From: Prevotella sp.
GTDB lineage: Bacteria > Bacteroidota > Bacteroidia > Bacteroidales > Bacteroidaceae
Length of the DNA stretch: 64,000 nucleotides
Direction of reading: 5' to 3'
Assembly: GCA_022775105.1 (NCBI GenBank)
Contig: JALFIX010000141.1
Location: 7,614-71,613 of the forward strand
The translations under genes and the position numbers were made by a program. Numbering within the stretch: position 1 is the stretch's first letter; the number at the start of each line of letters is the position of its first letter. Shown piece after piece: positions 6,001-56,018 of the stretch. Under the pieces are notes generated by a model. The model made no database searches and was not told the origin of the DNA. It was given only the letters and a program-made list of their open reading frames with translations.

Positions 6001-6318
6001 GTAATCGCCGACTCACGCCTGCTTCAGAACGACCCTTATCTGAGCTATGCCTATAACGCATACAACTACTCAACAGAGCGCGTGGCGAAGGGCGACTTTA
6101 TCCGCATGAAGGAGATTTCGCTGACATACGACTTCCCCGCCAAGCTCATCCAGCCGCTGAAGCTGACAGCCCTCTCGCTGAAGCTACAGGCCACCAACCT
6201 GTTCCTCATCTATTCGGATGACAAGCTAAACGGTCAGGACCCCGAGTTCTACAATAGCGGCGGTGTGGCATCGCCAATGCCGAAACAGTTTACGTTAACG
6301 TTGAGATTGGGAATATAA
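3004..6318 (+). CDS. SusC/RagA-family TonB-dependent outer-membrane transporter (no N-terminal STN signalling domain)
   Basis: 1104 aa. Signal peptide, then a carboxypeptidase-regulatory-like fold (VSGTVVSQEDGEPVIGASVMVEG..TDVNGNFSL). A plug region follows (LGEVVVTG...RIRVRGATSI), and the barrel ends ...FTLTLRLGI. A SusD gene follows immediately. Confidence 0.93.
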   Translation: MEKRIETLLVCLFLFIGTVFAQTKVSGTVVSQEDGEPVIGASVMVEGAKTGAITDVNGNFSLPVPPGKKIVVSYIGMVSQTLKAKEGMKVVLAPDAQTLGEVVVTGMQKMDKRLFTGATTKVSGDKVKLDGVSDVSRALEGKAAGVSVQNVSGTFGTAPRIRVRGATSIYGSSKPLWVVDGVIMEDVTEVDADALSSGDAATLISSAIAGLNADDIESFQILKDGSATSIYGARAMAGVIVVTTKKGHQGSNKISYTGEFTMRLKPSYSNFNIMNSQEQMAVYKEMEQSGIINFAKTYRASDSGVYGKMYHLLNSYDETSGTFGLANTTEARNAYLREAEYRNTDWFDLLFSNAISQNHSISMSSGTDKAQYYTSFSIMDDPGWYRQSSVQRYTGNINALYNISKKVTVNIIGNAAYRKQRAPGTLGQSLDPVSGEVRRDFDINPYSYALNTSRTLDPNESYIRNYAPFNIFSELDNNFMNFNVVDTKIQGELKYKPITKVEISVLGAYKFSTTTQEHEIHDYANQAWAYRAMDDATVRDANPWLYTDPDKVNSLPVSVLPVGGFYRETKYRMNSWDFRATANYNDVYADDHIVNLFGGMEVNNLERRRTFFHGVGIQYDMGMLPSYDYQYFKQGQEEGTQYFSVVDSYTRSAAFFGTANYSWKGRYSVNGTVRYEGTNKLGKSRSARWLPTWNVSGAWNIHEEPWFENVSSVLSNATLRASYSLTADRGPSSITNSKVVITSYNPWRPSTDVSETGLGINDLENSELTYEKKHEFNIGANVGFLNNRINVEVDWYRRNNYDLIGAVTTTGVGGRVTKYANVASMRSHGIEVSLSTRNIVTKDFKWNTDFIFSKTKNTVTDFDSNVRVIDMVTGTGFTMSGYPVRSLFSFDFQGLNEDGVPTFINENGQVTTSDIYFQEYNEKSHLVYEGSIDPTMTGSFGNVFQYKNFKLNVFMTYAFGNVIRLDPVFKSSYSDLTAMPKEFKNRWTVQGDELITNVPVIADSRLLQNDPYLSYAYNAYNYSTERVAKGDFIRMKEISLTYDFPAKLIQPLKLTALSLKLQATNLFLIYSDDKLNGQDPEFYNSGGVASPMPKQFTLTLRLGI

Positions 6319-6330
6319 TTTAGGTTTTTG

Positions 6331-6360
6331 AGGAGTTAAGGAGTTAACTCCTTAACTTCT
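6331..6360. repeat. 30-bp near-perfect palindrome between SusC and SusD
   Basis: AGGAGTTAAGGAGTT|AACTCCTTAACTTCT: 15-bp arms, one mismatch, no loop, built from the octamer GAGTTAAG. It is preceded by TAGGTTTTTG (6321-6330). Confidence 0.75.
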
Positions 6361-6384
6361 TAACTTCTATATATAAAAAAGATT

Positions 6385-20551: not shown

Positions 20552-20581
20552 TGTAACTGTTCTACGAATTCGGTTAATTTA

Positions 20582-20629
20582 AACACAAAGACACAAAGGA
20601 ACTACTTTGTTTCTTCGTGTCTTTGTGTT
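20582..20629. repeat. Compact hairpin of the AACACAAAGACAC family after typA
   Basis: AACACAAAGACACAAAGGAAC-TA-CTTTGTTTCTTCGTGTCTTTGTGTT; the outer 13 bp pair perfectly. Confidence 0.8.
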
Positions 20630-20665
20630 AAAAATATTATTCCCAGAACAGTTTCCAAAAGATTA

Positions 20666-47956: not shown

Positions 47957-50572
47957 ATGATGACAGCAAATGAAATCCGCGATTCGTTCAAGAATTACTT
48001 CGAATCGAAAGGACATGCAATCGTACCGTCTGCTCCTATGGTAATCAAGGACGACCCTACGTTGATGTTCACTAATGCTGGTATGAACCAGTGGAAAGAC
48101 GTTATCCTCGGCACACGTGACCCGGAGCCACGCCGCCGTGCAGATTCACAGAAGTGCCTCCGTGTAAGCGGTAAGCACAACGACCTCGAAGAGGTTGGAC
48201 ACGACACTTATCACCACACCATGTTCGAGATGCTCGGCAACTGGAGTTTCGGTGATTACTTCAAGGAAGGTGCCATCGACATGGCATGGGAATATCTTGT
48301 GGATGTATTGAAACTCGACCCCAAGGACCTTTACGTTACAGTATTTGAAGGCTCTGAGGAGGAAAACCTCGTGCGCGACGATGAGGCTGCCTCTTATTGG
48401 GCTAAGCATGTGCCTGCCGACCATATCATCAACGGCAACAAGCACGACAACTTCTGGGAGATGGGCGACACGGGACCCTGTGGACCTTGCTCGGAGATTC
48501 ACCTCGACTCACGCACTCCCGAGGAGAAGGCAAAAGTGCCCGGACGCGAACTCGTCAACAAGGATGACCCCCAGGTAATCGAGATTTGGAATATCGTGTT
48601 CATGCAGTTTAACCGCAAGGCTGACGGCTCGCTCGAACCGCTCTCGATGAACGTTATCGACACCGGTATGGGATTCGAGCGTCTTGTACGCGCCATGCAG
48701 GGCAAGCACTCCAATTATGACACCGACATCTTCCAACCCATCATCAAGGAGATTTCACGTCTCTCGGGCAAGCAGTATGGCGAGAAGGAAGAGACCGACG
48801 TGGCAATGCGCGTTATCGCCGACCACCTGCGTGCCGTATCGTTCTCCATTGCCGACGGTCAGTTGCCAAGCAATGCCAAGGCAGGATATGTCATCCGCCG
48901 CATCCTTCGCCGTGCCGTGCGCTATGCCTACACCTTCCTCGACCAGAAGGAATCCTTCATGTATAAGCTCTTGCCCGTGTTCATCGGCGAGATGGGCGGT
49001 GCCTATCCCGAACTTGTGGCACAGCGCGAACTCATCGGTCGCGTGATGAAGGAAGAGGAAGACTCGTTCCTCCGTACACTCGACAAGGGTATCAACCTTC
49101 TCAACCAGGCAATGGACGAGTTGAAGGCCAACGGCAAGACCGTGCTCGACGGTGCCCAGGCATTCCGCATGTTCGACACCTACGGCTTCCCCCTCGACCT
49201 CACCGAACTCATCTGCCGCGAAAACGGATATACTGTGGATGAGGCTGGATTCAACGTTGAGATGGAGAAGCAGAAGGCACGCGCCCGCAATGCCGCTGCC
49301 GTGGAGAATGGCGACTGGGAGATATTGCAGGAAGGCGAACAGCATTTCCAGGGATATGACTACACCGAATATGAGTGCCATATCCTAAGATATAGAAAGG
49401 TGACACAAAAGAAACAAAGTTTCTTTGAACTTGTCCTCGACAACACCCCGTTCTATGGCGAGATGGGAGGACAGGTGGGCGACCGCGGCGTGCTCGTCAG
49501 CGAGAACGAGACCGTGGAGATTATCGATACCAAGCGCGAGAACAACCAGAGCATACATATAGTGAAGCAGTTGCCGAAAGACCCGACAGCCGACTTCATG
49601 GCATGTGTGGATGTTGACAAGCGCAACGCCTGTGCCGCCAACCATACCGCCACCCACTTGCTCGACTATGCCCTCAAGCAGGTATTAGGCGACCACGTAG
49701 AGCAGAAGGGCTCGTATGTAAGTCCCGACACCTTGCGCTTCGACTTCTCACATTTCCAGAAGGTTACCGACGAGGAACTTCGTCAGGTGGAGCGTATGGT
49801 CAACTCGATGATCCGCGAGGACTTGCCTCTCGACGAGCATCGCGACACACCTATAGAGGAAGCCAAGAAACTTGGTGCCATCGCCCTCTTTGGCGAGAAG
49901 TATGGCGACAAGGTGCGCGTCGTTCGTTTCGGTCCTTCATGTGAGTTCTGCGGTGGTATTCATGCCTCATCCACAGGTCGCATCGGCATGTTCAAGATAA
50001 TCTCCGAGAGCAGTGTTGCCGCCGGCATCCGCCGTGTTGAGGCAAAGACAGGCATCGAGTGCGAGGAGATGATGTATGCCCTTGAGGATAGTATCAAGGC
50101 CATACGTTCATTATTCAACAATGCCAAGGACCTGCGTGGAGTAATCCAGAAGTATATCGAGGAGCACGACACGATGAAGAAGAGCATCGAGGCATTCCAG
50201 GCACAGGCCGTTGAGCGTGCCAAGGCTTCGTTGGTAGAGAAGGCCCGCATCGTCAACGGTGTCACCGTGGCATCTGCCGTTCTTCCCATCTCCGCCCAGG
50301 CTGCCAAGGACCTTGCCTTCAAGGTTCGCGAGGCAATCGGCGAGAATCTGCTCTGCGTCATCGGTAGTGTAGAGGCAGGCAAGCCGATGCTCACCGTGAT
50401 GATGAGCGAGGATGTCGTTAAGGAACACAATCTCAATGCCGGTCAGCTCGTGCGCGAGGCAGCCAAACTGATACAGGGAGGCGGTGGCGGTCAGCCACAC
50501 TTCGCCACTGCGGGAGGAAAGAATCCCGATGGACTAAGTGCCGCTGTCGATGCGATTATCGCGAAGCTGTGA
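47957..50572 (+). CDS. alaS: Alanine--tRNA ligase
   Basis: 871 aa; [29 protein letters not shown], editing-domain HTATHLL, and DHHA1 tail [14 protein letters not shown]. Confidence 0.96.
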
Positions 50573-50592
50573 CGGCGTCGGATTGATAATTT

Positions 50593-50616
50593 AAACACAG
50601 AGACACGGAGATACGG
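50593..50616 (+). repeat. Solo arm AAACACAGAGACACGGAGATACGG followed by a T9 run, after alaS
   Basis: Same word family as 428-452. I found no inverted partner before the next element. Confidence 0.6.
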
Positions 50617-50626
50617 ATTTTTTTTT

Positions 50627-50799
50627 AAACACAAAGAAACAAAGGAACAAAGTTTTCTTTAGGTAGGAAGGTAACAAGCGACTTAAAAGTCGCCACGAAG
50701 CCTTGCGGGTAGAAAACTTTGTGGACTTTGTAAGCAGCTTTGCTGCTCATAGTATCTTCCGTTAGCGAAAAAAACTTTGTATCTTTGTGTCTTTGTGTT
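50627..50799 (+). repeat. 173-bp structured repeat element, copy A (candidate ncRNA / MITE-like element)
   Basis: 25-nt inverted arms (50627-50652 / 50775-50799) enclose an 87-bp core (50673-50759) shared with copy B. Internal hairpins are GCGACT-TAAA-AGTCGC, CCACGAAG..CTTTGTGG and GCAGC-TTT-GCTGC. Confidence 0.8.
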
Positions 50800-50847
50800 C
50801 AATAAATTAAATCAATAATAAAATAAAACTACTTAAAAAATAACGTT

Positions 50848-52914
50848 ATGAGAAAAACTATCTTAAAATCTCTGTTGCTGTCATTCCTTTGCATGGTGGC
50901 AACAGTAGTCTTCGCTGAAGAGAAGACTCCCGCCTTTCCCGGTGCCGAAGGTTTCGGACGCTACGTGACTGGCGGACGCGGCGGTAATGTCTATCACGTG
51001 ACATCACTCGTCGACGACGGTTCGGTGGGAACCCTCAGATGGGCACTCGGCAAGTCGGGTGCAAAGACTATCGTGTTCGATGTGTCGGGAACAATTCATC
51101 TCAAGTCAGCACTCAACATCTCCACAGGCAATGTCACCATAGCAGGACAAACCGCCCCCGGTGATGGTATCTGCGTGGCTGACTATCCAGTGGCTATAAA
51201 GGCCAACAACGTCATAGTGAGATATATGAGATTCCGATTGGGTAACAACAACGTGCTCGTCAATGGTGCCGACGGATGGGATGGTTTTGGGGGATTCGAC
51301 CAGCAGGACTGGATGATTGACCACTGCTCTGTGAGTTGGTCTATCGACGAGTGTCTCTCCGTGCTTGGTAACAAGAACACCACCGTGCAGTGGTGTCTCG
51401 TGGCTCAGAGCCTTGTTAACTCCGGACACTCCAAGGGTGCCCACGGCTATGGCGGCAACTGGGGTGGTAGCGGAGCCTCGTTCCACCATAATCTGATAGC
51501 CCACCACGGCAGCCGCACTCCGCGTCTTGGCCCGCGTCCCACTACACAGCTCGACGAGCGTATGGACATGCGCAACAATGTCATTTATAACTTCGGCGGC
51601 AACGGATGCTACGGCGGTGAGGGCATGAAAGTCAACATCGTAAACAATTACTACAAACCAGGACCAGGTACTCCCACCGACAAGAAGGGATACCGCATTG
51701 CAGGAGTGGGAATACGCACCAATGAATACGTGAATACCTATCCAGCCTATGCTCCCGCACTTCATCTATGGGGAAAATATTATGTAACAGGTAATTACAA
51801 CAGTAAATATACCACAGTTAACCAGGACAACTGGACATACGGAGTAATCAACCAGATTGATGCCAACAATTGCGACGGTACTTTCACTCAGGAGACCAAG
51901 GACTCCATTAAGCTCACTGAGCCTATTGATTATATCCTTACAACAACCCACTCAGCCGCAGATGCATACGCGAGAGTGCTCGACTTTGCCGGAGCAAGTC
52001 TTCACCGCGACAGCTTTGACGAGCTGATGGTAAGCGATGCCCGCAACAGTAAGGCTACATACACCGGCAGTGGATTGAGCAAGGGTTTTGTAAATTCACA
52101 GGACGACAACAAGCCCGCCGATGCAGACGAGACATGGAGCGCATGGCCTACACTAGCCTCCAGTGAAGCCCCGAAAGACACCGACGGCGACGGTATGCCC
52201 GACGAATGGGAGCTTGCCAATGCCCTCGACCCGACCAATCCCAACGACGGCAAGACCATTGGTGCCGACGGCTATTCAAATCTTGAAAACTATCTCAACT
52301 CGCTCGTTGCCGACATCACCACATCGCAAAACCTTGGTGGCGAACTTATGGGAAGCACTGTGGAAGAGATAGAGGTGCCTGTGACATCAACACTTGACAT
52401 CACCCCCGAGACTGCCAACGGCGACTGGACATTCTCAAATGGTTGCAGCATCACCATGTCAACTGCCAAGGGTTATTCCACAAGCAAGAACTGCGGAATA
52501 CAGAGTATTAAATATTCCAACAATGTCACATATACAATCCATCTGCCCGAGGGCGTTGCCGTGAGCAGCATTGATTTCCAGGGATTTACCAATGAGGATG
52601 GTGTGGATGGCTATCTCGCCCAACTTAATGGCAAGACCTTCAGTTCCTCTGATTATGTTTTCCCTTCAAGGACAGGCAATCAGGCTGTTTCGTATAATGT
52701 GAAGTTGGACACCCCCGCATCCGGCAGTGTCAGTGTCAAGTTCGTGAAGCAGGTGGGCATGAGAATGACTCTCAACACTGTATCCATCACAGGCATCATC
52801 CCCATAACCCTCGACGTTGATTCAGATTCCAGGACATTCAACCTCGGCGGTCAGCCCGCAGGCAAGAACTCCAAGGGAATTATTATTCAAAACGGCAAGA
52901 AAGTATATAAATAA
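50848..52914 (+). CDS. Pectate lyase (PL1-like) with TSP3-like calcium-binding repeat, extra beta-sandwich region and T9SS C-terminal sorting domain
   Basis: 688 aa; FPGAEGFGRYVTGGRGGNVYHVTSL, DWMIDHCSVSWSIDE and HHGSRTPRLG of PL1; DTDGDGMPDEWELANALDPTNPNDG; C-terminus RTFNLGGQPAGKNSKGIIIQNGKKVYK. Confidence 0.85.
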   Translation: MRKTILKSLLLSFLCMVATVVFAEEKTPAFPGAEGFGRYVTGGRGGNVYHVTSLVDDGSVGTLRWALGKSGAKTIVFDVSGTIHLKSALNISTGNVTIAGQTAPGDGICVADYPVAIKANNVIVRYMRFRLGNNNVLVNGADGWDGFGGFDQQDWMIDHCSVSWSIDECLSVLGNKNTTVQWCLVAQSLVNSGHSKGAHGYGGNWGGSGASFHHNLIAHHGSRTPRLGPRPTTQLDERMDMRNNVIYNFGGNGCYGGEGMKVNIVNNYYKPGPGTPTDKKGYRIAGVGIRTNEYVNTYPAYAPALHLWGKYYVTGNYNSKYTTVNQDNWTYGVINQIDANNCDGTFTQETKDSIKLTEPIDYILTTTHSAADAYARVLDFAGASLHRDSFDELMVSDARNSKATYTGSGLSKGFVNSQDDNKPADADETWSAWPTLASSEAPKDTDGDGMPDEWELANALDPTNPNDGKTIGADGYSNLENYLNSLVADITTSQNLGGELMGSTVEEIEVPVTSTLDITPETANGDWTFSNGCSITMSTAKGYSTSKNCGIQSIKYSNNVTYTIHLPEGVAVSSIDFQGFTNEDGVDGYLAQLNGKTFSSSDYVFPSRTGNQAVSYNVKLDTPASGSVSVKFVKQVGMRMTLNTVSITGIIPITLDVDSDSRTFNLGGQPAGKNSKGIIIQNGKKVYK

Positions 52915-52966
52915 ACAAGTATTGGAAGTAATTTTTAGTAACTATTCAGCTAATCCTATATATTAG

Positions 52967-53139
52967 AACACAAAGACACAAAGAAACGAAGATTATATTT
53001 TGATACAAAGACAACAAGCGACTTAAAAGTCGCCACAAAGGCTTGCAGTGGGAAAACTTTGTGGACTTTGTAAGCAGCTTTGCTGCTCATAGTATCTTCA
53101 AACAGCGAAAAATGCTTTGTTTCTTCGTGTCTTTGTGTT
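52967..53139 (+). repeat. 173-bp structured repeat element, copy B
   Basis: Same length and orientation as copy A. The core at 53013-53099 differs from copy A at 6 clustered positions. Arms are 52967-52990 / 53115-53139. Confidence 0.8.
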
Positions 53140-53199
53140 TAAAATTATACTAGCTGAATATTTACGTGGTTTAAATATTAGTATAAATAAAATTAAGAT

Positions 53200-55773
53200 A
53201 TGAAGAAAAACCTGATAATCCTCATTATTTCCTTCGCATTGGGAGCAACGGCCCAGACAACGCTCCCATATAAGGACATAAACCTGACTCCCGAGCAGCG
53301 TGCCGATGACCTCATCAGTCGCCTCACACTCAAAGAAAAAACAAAACTGATGATGGACCAGTCGGAGCCTGTCGAACGCCTCGGCATTCCCCGTTTCCAA
53401 TGGTGGAATGAGGCTCTGCATGGAGTGGGGCGCAATGGCTACACCACCGTCTTCCCCATCACCATGGGTATGGCGGCATCATGGGATGACGCACTGCTCT
53501 ATCGCTGCTTTGATGCCGTGAGCGACGAGGCACGCATCAAAAACACCCAGGCAAAGAGCAAGAACGAGATGAACCGCTATCAGTGTCTCTCCTTCTGGAC
53601 TCCCAACATCAATATCTTCCGCGACCCAAGATGGGGACGCGGACAGGAAACCTACGGCGAAGACCCATACCTCACATCACGAATGGGTTTGGCAGTGGTC
53701 AACGGACTTCAAGGTCCGCGTGACACCAAATACAAGAAACTCCTTGCCTGCGCCAAGCACTATGCCGTACACTCAGGACCCGAATGGAACCGCCATTCCT
53801 TCAACATCGAGAACCTCCCCGAGCGCGACCTTTGGGAGACTTATCTCCCCGCCTTCAAGACATTGGTACAGGAGGGAGACGTGGAGGAAGTGATGTGCGC
53901 CTATCAGAGTATCGATGGTGATCCTTGCTGTGGTAATACCCGATATCTCCAGCGCATTCTTCGCGACGAATGGGGATTCAAGGGCGTTGTAGTCAGCGAC
54001 TGTGGAGCCATCCGCGACTTCCATCAAAAGGATTGTCATGGAGTGTCGGAGACCCCCGCAGATGCGGCAGGAAAGGCTGTCATTGCCGGCACCGACCTCG
54101 AATGTGGTTCGGTATATAAGAGCATTCCGCAAGCCATCGCCGAAGGCAAGCTGACAATGAAGGACATCGACACATCGCTCAAAAGACTGCTCGTGGCGAG
54201 AATAAAACTCGGCGACCTCGACGACGACAAGCTCGTATCGTGGACATCCATACCCCAAGACCGTCTCTGCTCATCAAAACACAATGCCCTTGCCTACGAG
54301 ATGGCGCAGAAGAGCATCGTGCTCCTTCAAAACAACAACAACGTACTTCCCCTCAAGAAAGACGACTTGAAAATAGTTGTGATGGGACCCAATGCCAAGG
54401 ACAGTGTCATGCAGTGGGGCAACTATAGCGGTTATCCCCACCACACCGTCACCATTCTCGAAGGCATTGAGAAGAAACTCAACGGACGCGGAACAGTGAA
54501 ATACGTTGATGGTTGTGGGCATGTCAGCAACACCGTCAGGGAAAGCCGCTTCTCCTCACTGACCACACCCACGGGAAAATCAGGAATGGAAGTCAAGTAT
54601 TGGAACAACATCACGATGAGCGGCAATCCCAATGCCACCGCCGTCCATACCAGTGCCGTCAATCTCAACAATGGCGGAAATACCGCCTTCGCCCCCGGCG
54701 TTGAACTCGAGAACTTCACGGGATGCTACAAGGCCATGTTCAAGGCAGACAGGAGCGAGGAAGTGACATTCGAGGTGGAGGCCGACGACGGCTATCGCAT
54801 CATCATCAACGGCGACACCCTGCGTGACAGGTTCCGACCCGCTCACGGTGTCCAGAAATGGTCGAAGTCATACAGGGTAAAACCGGGCGACAAGTATGAC
54901 ATTCAGATAGATTATATACAGATGTCAGGCATGGCCCACATGAGGTTTGACGTCTTCACCACCAAGGAAAAAACCGTCAGCGACATATTGTCCGAAATCT
55001 CCGATGCCGACTATGTCGTATTTGCCGGAGGCATATCCCCGCGTCTCGAAGGCGAGGAGATGAAGGTGGATGCTTACGGATTCAAGGGCGGCGACCGCAC
55101 CGACATCCAGTTGCCCCAATGCCAGCGCGAACTGGTGAAGGCCATCCGCGACTCGGGCAAGAAGGTCATCTTTGTCAACTGCTCAGGCTCTGCCATCGCC
55201 CTCGTGCCCGAAACCGAGACCTGCTCGGCCATCCTTCAGGCATGGTATCCAGGCGAAAGGGGAGGCGATGCCGTGGCTGACGTGCTCTTCGGCGACTATA
55301 ACCCTTCGGGCAAGCTGCCCATAACGTTCTATCGCTCGGTGGATGACCTTCCCGATTTTCTCGACTACACGATGACCAACCGCACATACCGTTATTTCAA
55401 CGGCTCTCCGCTGTGGCATTTCGGTTATGGCATGAGCTACACCACATTTGCCTTTGGCTCTCCGAAATACAAGGACGGCAAGGTCACTGTTGACGTCACC
55501 AACACTGGAAAGTGCGACGGCGACGAGATTGTTCAGGTATATCTTCGCCACACCGCCGACAAGAACGGTCCGAAGAAGACTCTCCGCGGTTTCAAGCGTG
55601 TCAGTATCAAGGCTGGAGAGACCAAGAAAGTGGTAATCGACATGCCCAAAGAGAACTTCGAGACATGGGATGCCGCTACCAACACCATGCGGGTTATTGG
55701 AGGCAAATATGACATCATGGTGGGCAACAGCAGTCGTGATGCCGACCTGAAGCATCTGAAAGTTCAATTGTAA
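53200..55773 (+). CDS. Glycoside hydrolase family 3 enzyme with inserted PA14 domain
   Basis: 857 aa with a signal peptide. GH3 blocks ..FWTPNINIFRDPRWGRGQETYGEDP.. and GFKGVVVSDCGAI (nucleophile Asp). PA14-like insert ..GCYKAMFKADRSEEVTFEVEADDGYRIIINGD.. Confidence 0.9.
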   Translation: MKKNLIILIISFALGATAQTTLPYKDINLTPEQRADDLISRLTLKEKTKLMMDQSEPVERLGIPRFQWWNEALHGVGRNGYTTVFPITMGMAASWDDALLYRCFDAVSDEARIKNTQAKSKNEMNRYQCLSFWTPNINIFRDPRWGRGQETYGEDPYLTSRMGLAVVNGLQGPRDTKYKKLLACAKHYAVHSGPEWNRHSFNIENLPERDLWETYLPAFKTLVQEGDVEEVMCAYQSIDGDPCCGNTRYLQRILRDEWGFKGVVVSDCGAIRDFHQKDCHGVSETPADAAGKAVIAGTDLECGSVYKSIPQAIAEGKLTMKDIDTSLKRLLVARIKLGDLDDDKLVSWTSIPQDRLCSSKHNALAYEMAQKSIVLLQNNNNVLPLKKDDLKIVVMGPNAKDSVMQWGNYSGYPHHTVTILEGIEKKLNGRGTVKYVDGCGHVSNTVRESRFSSLTTPTGKSGMEVKYWNNITMSGNPNATAVHTSAVNLNNGGNTAFAPGVELENFTGCYKAMFKADRSEEVTFEVEADDGYRIIINGDTLRDRFRPAHGVQKWSKSYRVKPGDKYDIQIDYIQMSGMAHMRFDVFTTKEKTVSDILSEISDADYVVFAGGISPRLEGEEMKVDAYGFKGGDRTDIQLPQCQRELVKAIRDSGKKVIFVNCSGSAIALVPETETCSAILQAWYPGERGGDAVADVLFGDYNPSGKLPITFYRSVDDLPDFLDYTMTNRTYRYFNGSPLWHFGYGMSYTTFAFGSPKYKDGKVTVDVTNTGKCDGDEIVQVYLRHTADKNGPKKTLRGFKRVSIKAGETKKVVIDMPKENFETWDAATNTMRVIGGKYDIMVGNSSRDADLKHLKVQL

Positions 55774-55797
55774 ACGACTTGTCAACTGAACTCAAAC

Positions 55798-55885
55798 GCA
55801 GGTATCTGCGTTGGCTATTGCAGGTATCTGCGTTGGCCATCGCAGGTATCTGCGTTTGCTATTGCAGGTATCTGCGATTAGGACC
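55798..55885 (+). repeat. 22-bp tandem repeat x4 (GCAGGTATCTGCGTTGGCTATT) after the GH3 gene
   Basis: Units at 55798, 55820, 55842 and 55864, the last degenerate. Each unit contains the mini-hairpin GCAG-GTAT-CTGC. No spacers. Confidence 0.85.
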
Positions 55886-55894
55886 GTAGTAGAG

Positions 55895-56018
55895 AGGGGT
55901 GACAGGTTGACACTTATATATAAAAAAGTCGTGTGAGAGGAAATTAACGTACTATATAGTAAGCGAATTTCCCGTTATAGGTTTTTTCTATATAATATAG
56001 TGTCACCCTGTCACCCCT
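55895..56018. repeat. 124-bp element bounded by 20-bp terminal inverted repeats
   Basis: AGGGGTGACAGGTTGACACT (55895-55914) against the reverse complement of AGTGTCACCCTGTCACCCCT (55999-56018) has one mismatch. Pairing extends inward through A/T-rich sequence. Confidence 0.8.

Follow-up and report, generated by a model that had tools for sequence, protein, structure and literature searches.

A 64,000-nt stretch of Prevotella sp. DNA (contig JALFIX010000141.1; hereafter the window) carries two similar, structured repeats, copy A and copy B, on either side of a gene for a putative pectate lyase (PL1). Copy A lies between alaS and PL1, and copy B between PL1 and the GH3 gene of a polysaccharide-utilisation locus (PUL). 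We conclude that the two repeats are copies of a dispersed MITE (a miniature transposable element with inverted repeats) and not a device specific to this locus. The element is very probably a MITE of the IS66/ISBst12 type with a long internal hairpin, an ordinary selfish repeat rather than a new gene or regulator. A miniature mobile element was among the options listed in a preliminary description of the window, and the ends, the flanking duplications and the dispersed copies show that option to be the correct one.

A repeat search of the window returned a direct repeat of 150 nt (50653-50802 and 52993-53142; 85% identity, spacing 2340 nt), and an inverted-repeat search found arms of 39 nt with 85% complementarity in copy A and of 35 nt with 83% in copy B. 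The two cores (50673-50759 and 53013-53099) are identical at 81 of 87 bases in an ungapped comparison, with all six differences falling within 50697-50711. One 38-mer of the core is present at exactly two places in the window and in none of 100 shuffles. The spacers between arms and core agree at 12 of 20 positions (spacer 1) and 9 of 15 (spacer 2), and the downstream ATGs, those of PL1 and GH3, are 48 and 60 nt away. The copies were therefore described correctly as having inverted arms, 87-nt cores that differ at six sites within 15 nt, strongly diverged spacers and a position 48-60 bp upstream of PL1 and GH3. The extent of 173 bp assigned to each was, however, too short. The full element is about 228 bp, and the outer terminal inverted repeats of copy B lie beyond the limits given at the time (Table 1).

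Alignment of the copies gives the order of parts in a complete element, from left to right, as GTAACTATTCAGCTAATCCTATATATTAG, the left arm AACACAAAGACACAAAGAAACGAAG, a spacer, the core, a second spacer, the right arm and TAAAATTATACCAGCTGAATAGTTAC. The terminal inverted repeats are 13 nt long (GTAACTATTCAGC). Just inside them lie inverted arms of about 25 nt made of ACACAAAG-type octamers, and the core region between the arms, about 110 nt, folds into three small hairpins. Similarity between copies breaks off exactly at GTAAC/GTTAC. Most B-type copies, copy B included, have the terminal pair GTAACTATTCAGC / GCTGAATAGTTAC, which copy A lacks. The B-type subfamily is marked by ...CACAAAGGCTTGCAGTGGG. 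The A-type marker ...CACGAAGCCTTGCGGGTAG is copy A's own sequence, other A-type copies reading CACAAAG, and the same diagnostic sites are found in copy A, L001, L006, L011 and L018 (L numbers designate fetched loci). Judged by sequence, then, the six substitutions between A and B are subfamily-diagnostic sites. The core had been thought to be selectively maintained or recently converted; it is simpler to regard A and B as two subfamilies of one multi-copy family. With a consensus length of 228 bp and a sole open reading frame (ORF) that is very short and not conserved, the element has the size of a MITE and no transposase gene.

The family is widely dispersed. A 21-mer from the core, searched in a collection with one genome per species, gave 31 matches, 28 of which are true copies. 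These are spread over five Prevotella/Prevotellaceae metagenome-assembled genomes, Prevotella sp. PUUB57_bin.008 accounting for about 17 of them and SUG1453 for about 8. A probe for the left end added 16 further copies, all from a single pig-gut co-assembly, and copies outside the window number at least 44; as in other MITEs, many dispersed copies go together with presence/absence polymorphism. All 38 copies found by nhmmer in the window and the first locus set lie outside ORFs. Both orientations occur, with a weak excess (20:9) in the direction of the downstream gene. The preliminary description had suggested counting copies of the core in other Prevotellaceae and recording their flanks, and had allowed that there might be none; there are these 28 and 16 more, and all are intergenic. 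The contig with the exact PL1 protein is 2264 bp long and has both ends inside the repeats, which is typical of an assembly-breaking repeat. Two core sub-patterns had no match in viral contigs, the terminal repeat had four matches there that resemble chance occurrences in unrelated sequence, and BLAST with the element matched nothing among PLSDB plasmids or INPHARED phages.

Insertions of the family are flanked by target-site duplications of fixed length. We compared the 8 nt on either side of 17 distinct full-length insertions, with an offset of 10 nt as the control. The duplication is perfect (8/8) in five of the 17 (L019, L046, L049, L053 and L057), the identical flank pairs being TGATACCC, AGCGTCAC, GGAAAAAT, AAGTTAGG and TATACATA, and three more have 7/8, as against 0/17 at 7/8 in the offset control. 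L007, which has lost part of its right end, likewise reaches 8/8 (GGGGAAAT), and L048 has 7/8. A duplication of 8 bp indicates a DDE enzyme.

The ends of the element are those of known insertion sequences (ISs). The terminal 13 nt are identical at 13 of 13 positions to the left inverted repeat of an IS66-like IS of Geobacillus pHTA426 (left GTAACTATTCAGCCC, right GTATCTATTCAGCCC, 8-bp duplication AACTCGTC), the transposase of which matches Pfam DDE_Tnp_IS66 at 218 bits and also zf-IS66. They match as well the GTAACTATTCAG-type ends of seven relatives from IMG/VR (31-89% identity), six of which have a perfect 8-bp duplication, and they resemble the ends of relatives from Bacillus thuringiensis (ends GTAACTACTCAGCTT, 8-bp duplication CAAAATTT) and Acaryochloris (ends GTTACTGCCCAGGCT, 8-bp duplication ACAAATGC). 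A further resemblance is to ISDge4 of Deinococcus, a member of the ISBst12 group of the IS66 family with ends GTGACTACTCAGCA and GTAACTGCTCAGCA and an 8-bp direct repeat (PMC12898284). Because the Prevotella MITE has the same ends, GTAACTATTCAGC, and the same length of duplication, we assign it to ISBst12, a group of single-ORF insertion sequences within the IS66 family. It is like the pHTA426 copy and ISDge4 in the terminal sequence GTAACTATTCAG(C) and the 8-bp duplication, but unlike them it has no transposase gene, and its interior, with octamer-repeat arms and a three-hairpin core, shows no resemblance to the interiors of the ISs examined. Mobilisation in trans by an ISBst12-type DDE transposase encoded elsewhere in the genome is the most likely mechanism; such an enzyme would bind both ends of the element and integrate it at a staggered 8-bp cut. 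The termini and the duplications can be read directly in the copies, and from them we infer the identity and the presence of a cognate transposase in Prevotella as the most likely case. "Orphan" terminal repeats in the fetched loci led to no parent IS, and, interrupted copies aside, their number is about that expected by chance.

Orthologous loci show the element present, absent and decayed. In L036 and L037 (PL1 93% identical) only 6 nt separate the PL1 stop from the GH3 ATG, which represents an empty site, and in L069, which encodes the exact window GH3 protein, the gap is 9 nt and the MITE is absent. In L034 and L035 (PL1 95% identical) copy B occupies the same site, shortened by an internal loss of 83 nt between two CTTTGTG repeats. 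Copy B is probably an old insertion, common to strains with 95-99% identical PL1, the duplication of which has decayed. Contigs that encode an identical AlaS protein differ in the alaS-PL1 spacer, which measures 265 to 304 nt. In L061, L063 and L064 a complete hairpin of a second repeat type, family 2, takes the place of the 3' half of copy A. These three loci also keep a remnant of an outer family-2 right arm, which indicates that an older hairpin repeat holds copy A in its loop, and the orthologous spacers of L034 and L035 keep a complete family-2 hairpin. Copy A is probably a derivative that has no terminal repeats and is embedded in this older repeat. Other repeats are nested inside MITE copies in L050 and L055, while L004, L013 and L016 are chimeras with a GC-rich repeat. 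Mosaics arise by recombination among the similar arms.

Table 1. Positions in the window of the two MITE copies, their parts, related repeats and neighbouring genes
Feature	Position	Strand	Remarks
Family-2 hairpin repeat, ACACAGAG/ACTCTGTG arms, 34-nt loop	428-517	+	Between bacA/uppP-like and truB genes
Short core-less superfamily member, GTAACTGTTCT.../...AGAACAGTTTCC ends, ACACAAAG arms, 6-nt loop	20553-20656	+	
alaS	47957-50572		
Orphan left arm of the older family-2 hairpin repeat (ACACAGAG/ACACGGAG words), then T run	50590-50623	+	
Copy A, A-type variant without outer terminal repeats	50625-50803	+	nhmmer 120.7 bits, model positions 27-206 only
Copy A core (A-type: ...CACGAAGCCTTGCGGGTAG...)	50673-50759	+	
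PL1, 688-aa protein	50848-52914		Named pectate lyase by public sources
Copy B, full-length MITE, 228 bp: outer terminal inverted repeats, octamer-repeat arms and core	52938-53165	+	nhmmer against family consensus 195 bits, model positions 1-227
Copy B left terminal inverted repeat GTAACTATTCAGC	52938-52950	+	Equals left inverted repeat of the Geobacillus pHTA426 IS66/ISBst12-type IS; matches GTAACTATTCAG termini of seven IMG/VR relatives
Copy B left arm, (ACACAAAG)-type octamer words	52967-52991	+	
Copy B core (B-type: ...CACAAAGGCTTGCAGTGGG...)	53013-53099	+	Folds into three local hairpins
Copy B right arm	53115-53139	+	
Copy B right terminal inverted repeat GCTGAATATTTAC	53153-53165	+	One mismatch against family consensus GCTGAATAGTTAC
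GH3	53200-55773		
SusC/SusD pair	Downstream of GH3		

Several observations weigh against an IS66/ISBst12-type MITE. No IS66-type transposase turned up in a Pfam search of the window's 33 ORFs of 110 aa or more, and tblastn with the Geobacillus ISBst12-type transposase gave no match in about 0.5 Mb of fetched loci. That no transposase or recombinase is nearby had been pointed out before, and none of the 33 ORFs has such a Pfam domain; a missing nearby transposase is what is expected for a non-autonomous element. Copy A and several further copies of the A type lack terminal repeats and show no detectable duplication. Copy B itself scores 4/8 and lacks a clean duplication. Set against the empty site in L069, 48 additional flanking nt accompany it, and the whole block of 276 nt is bounded by TATAAATAA, so that the arrival of copy B was not a simple single insertion into that site. 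Alignment of L069 (1-120) with the window (52800-53215) shows that the 3' end of PL1 in L069 is clearly more divergent in DNA, despite the exact GH3 protein; together with the absence of the MITE, this indicates a recombination breakpoint at the PL1-GH3 junction, at the TATAAATAA repeat. Lastly, the stems are conserved. When variation in the other 25 copies, search key excluded, was mapped onto the single-sequence fold of copy B, it amounted to 0.050 at paired and 0.148 at unpaired positions (p about 1e-6), a difference of about three times, and for the interior alone to 0.053 and 0.137 (p = 0.0015). This hints at constraint beyond the transposase-binding ends. It fits a need for hairpin formation at the level of DNA or RNA, but shared descent combined with the mutability of A/T runs in the spacers could also produce it.

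Stem conservation also bears on the alternative that a functional structured RNA is encoded by the element or by its core, either as a cis-acting element of an untranslated region through which PUL mRNAs are attenuated, terminated or stabilised, or as a small RNA, with mobility as its means of spread. We consider this unlikely. Both copies do fold very stably on both strands (-63.5 to -66.3 kcal/mol, z-scores of -6.2 to -9.5 against shuffled sequences), loops and spacers vary about three times more than stems, there is one compensatory GC-to-AU change (hairpin 1, L017), and the 20:9 bias toward the orientation of the downstream gene points, weakly, the same way. A precedent also exists in the Bacteroidales MITE BrickBuilt, which has promoter elements and, by promoter-probe assays, the capability of bidirectional transcription (PMC4596501). 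The three hairpins proposed earlier are present in both copies when the plus strand is folded and in copy A when the minus strand is, but not in the minus-strand minimum-free-energy fold of copy B, where the core is paired differently. However, across 26 copies RNAalifold predicts 40 pairs, the covariation term being +0.93, and 39 of the 40 are without a compensatory change. No Rfam family reaches its gathering score. The best match, to the Bacteroides small RNA BTnc060 (RF04184), stands at 29.8 against 228.9 bits with 111 nt skipped and was rejected as a generic match to a long hairpin. The orientation of the copies varies, as does their context (5', 3' or convergent), and single-side changes, G·U versus A·C, show no significant strand preference, the independent events being too few. 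A scan for sigma-70 promoters and terminators, which is not designed for Bacteroidetes, found nothing above background, hairpins with a U-tract included. Formation of a DNA hairpin or cruciform, or descent from a master copy, also predicts conserved stems. An RNA element or small RNA, as suggested in the preliminary description, is thus left with no Rfam family at threshold and no supporting covariation. Promoters in Bacteroides have a TAnnTTTG motif at -7 with TTTG about 19-21 nt upstream. The TAtcTTTG box reported for copy A is indeed there (TATCTTTG, 50780-50787), but it is not supported as a promoter, lacking a -33 TTTG at the right spacing, and neither copy B nor the family consensus has a TATCTTTG-type box. 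Where it stands between genes of the same orientation, the element is probably transcribed along with them and would then form a very stable mRNA hairpin of about -64 kcal/mol; any effect on the expression of PL1 or GH3 would, we infer, be a by-product and not a designed function. Equally doubtful is a co-opted internal module, in which the 8-nt periodic ACACNNAG arms that close the three-hairpin core would be under structural selection and shared by a Prevotella hairpin-repeat superfamily with and without IS66-type ends. Such a module could work as a hairpin in RNA, setting how stable polycistronic PUL mRNAs are or how much read-through takes place, or it could provide arrayed binding sites to a protein of the host or the transposon.

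Other explanations are less probable still. Spread as REP/REPIN-like palindromes by a RAYT (HUH/Y1) transposase, instead of a DDE enzyme, would be in keeping with the long imperfect intergenic hairpins, the core-less hairpin forms at 20553-20656 and in L056, and the A-type copies without terminal repeats or duplications. Elements of the IS110 family are known to target REP-like sequences, and L058 has an IS110-family remnant inside the element end, with a 57-nt insert at the matching position and with the same right end in L047. We hold this mode of spread to be highly improbable. Perfect 8-bp duplications are a hallmark of DDE enzymes and are not made by HUH/Y1 transposition, the termini are those of the ISBst12 group, and no Y1_Tnp domain was found among the window ORFs. 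It is just as hard to believe that the direct copies serve as recombination substrates for programmed or recurrent copy-number variation of the PL1 cassette. They are in direct orientation, 2340 bp apart, and share exact stretches of 38 nt and 24 nt, and arms do recombine elsewhere, as the mosaics and the 83-nt internal deletion between CTTTGTG repeats show. Yet PL1 is single-copy in every one of about 16 independent contigs crossing either the alaS-PL1 or the PL1-GH3 junction, and homology this short would make RecA-dependent events rare. As to the earlier proposal that the repeats could delete or duplicate the cassette, PL1 was neither lost nor duplicated in any contig spanning the locus. 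The minus-strand micro-ORF (MSSKAAYKVHKVF...), finally, has next to no chance of being a small-protein gene. It is open in both window copies, as had been reported (41 aa in A, 44 aa in B), but it is not conserved across copies. Of 30 copies, 10 have GAG or AAG where the ATG would stand. Indels of 1 nt in hairpin loops create at least three reading frames after residue 13, and stops fall at 10 to 55 aa; start loss, frame shifts and variable length refute it as a conserved gene.

Further repeats and inserts were seen in the window and in the fetched loci. The repeats at 428-517 and 20553-20656, which the preliminary description had missed, both belong to one hairpin-repeat superfamily with copies A and B. 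The core-less form at 20553-20656 directly follows the stop codon of a typA/bipA-like gene, and its flanking octamers match at 6 of 8 positions. L005 and L034 carry elements nearly identical to the family-2 hairpin at 428-517, as does the alaS-PL1 spacer in other strains. GH3 and SusC are separated by a gap of 763 nt that holds further long palindromes at 55793-56018, among them CAAACGCAGGTATCTGCGTTGG.../...CTGCGTTGGCCATCGCAGGTATCTGCGTTTG and AGGGGTGACAGGTTGACAC.../...GTGTCACCCTGTCACCCCT; they probably form another repeat family. Short tandem and inverted GGAGTTAAG / CTTAACTCC repeats are found in the right flanks of the L025 and L026 copies and inside L054; the window has them once, at 6313-6370, between the SusC and SusD genes of its first PUL. 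In L004, L006, L013 and L016 of PUUB57_bin.008, a GC-rich repeat (...GGCGGGACGCCCACGCTCCCAGAGGC...CCAACCGTACTGG) is joined to the right half of the MITE core, with a recurrent breakpoint just upstream of AAAACTTTGTGG, giving a third, chimeric subfamily. The alaS-PL1 spacer of the PUUB57 lineage (L036, 3245-3501) contains unrelated repeats, namely GCCCTGAAAGGGC hairpins and a long CCCTCC/GGGAGG palindrome, and no hairpin elements, which marks this spacer as a hotspot for repeat turnover. An insert of about 500 nt interrupts the left terminal repeat of a MITE copy in L058 (985-1490, minus strand; GTAACTATTCT, insert, CTAATCC...). Its frameshift-corrected translation matches Pfam Transposase_20, the C-terminal domain of IS110/IS116/IS902, at 22.3 bits with a cutoff of 21.3. 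L047 (about 674-775) has a 57-nt insert at the corresponding position, and both inserts end in ...TGTTATATAGGAG. On these sequence features, the L058 insert looks like a decayed IS110-family element that targeted the MITE end. The 688-aa PL1 protein has no Pfam-A match at E<=0.001, and its close homologues are publicly named pectate lyase.

Mosaic intergenic repeats are known from other bacteria, among them the BIMEs and REPINs of E. coli, the BOX and RUP elements of pneumococci and the Correia elements of Neisseria. The Prevotella element resembles these in being modular or mosaic, forming long hairpins, lying between genes, being likely co-transcribed, and undergoing nesting and arm-to-arm recombination. 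REP sequences and REPINs are driven by RAYT and make no duplications, and Correia elements have TA duplications and ends unrelated to those of ISs, whereas the Prevotella element has 8-bp duplications and IS66-type ends. Within the Bacteroidales, it is like BrickBuilt and other MITEs of P. gingivalis, which are multi-copy, strictly intergenic, modular, structured and non-coding, with small inverted-repeat ends (PMC4596501). BrickBuilt, however, contains a 23-nt tandem minisatellite and has experimentally shown bidirectional promoter activity (PMC4596501), while the Prevotella element has 8-nt periodic inverted arms and no detected promoter, and the two have no sequence in common. A census of Bacteroidota counted 81,380 different MITEs in 46,051 genomes, Prevotella included (Nucleic Acids Res. 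2024, PMC11602168), and the class is therefore already known and common. A search of one library of papers for the arm, terminal and family-2 sequences found none containing them. This MITE family thus appears to be undescribed as such, within a known class and not as a new class of system.

In practical terms, the repeat family fragments short-read assemblies of gut Prevotella, and it gives rise to spurious "hypothetical protein" calls and to strain-level differences in intergenic length inside PULs. Natural pairs of strains with and without the insertion could be used to gauge the effect of a -64 kcal/mol hairpin on PUL expression. For the biology of Prevotella, these repeats point to a hairpin-rich MITE mobilised via IS66/ISBst12-type ends. 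Such elements can split formerly tight operons, as where the gap between PL1 and GH3 has gone from 6-9 nt to 285 nt.

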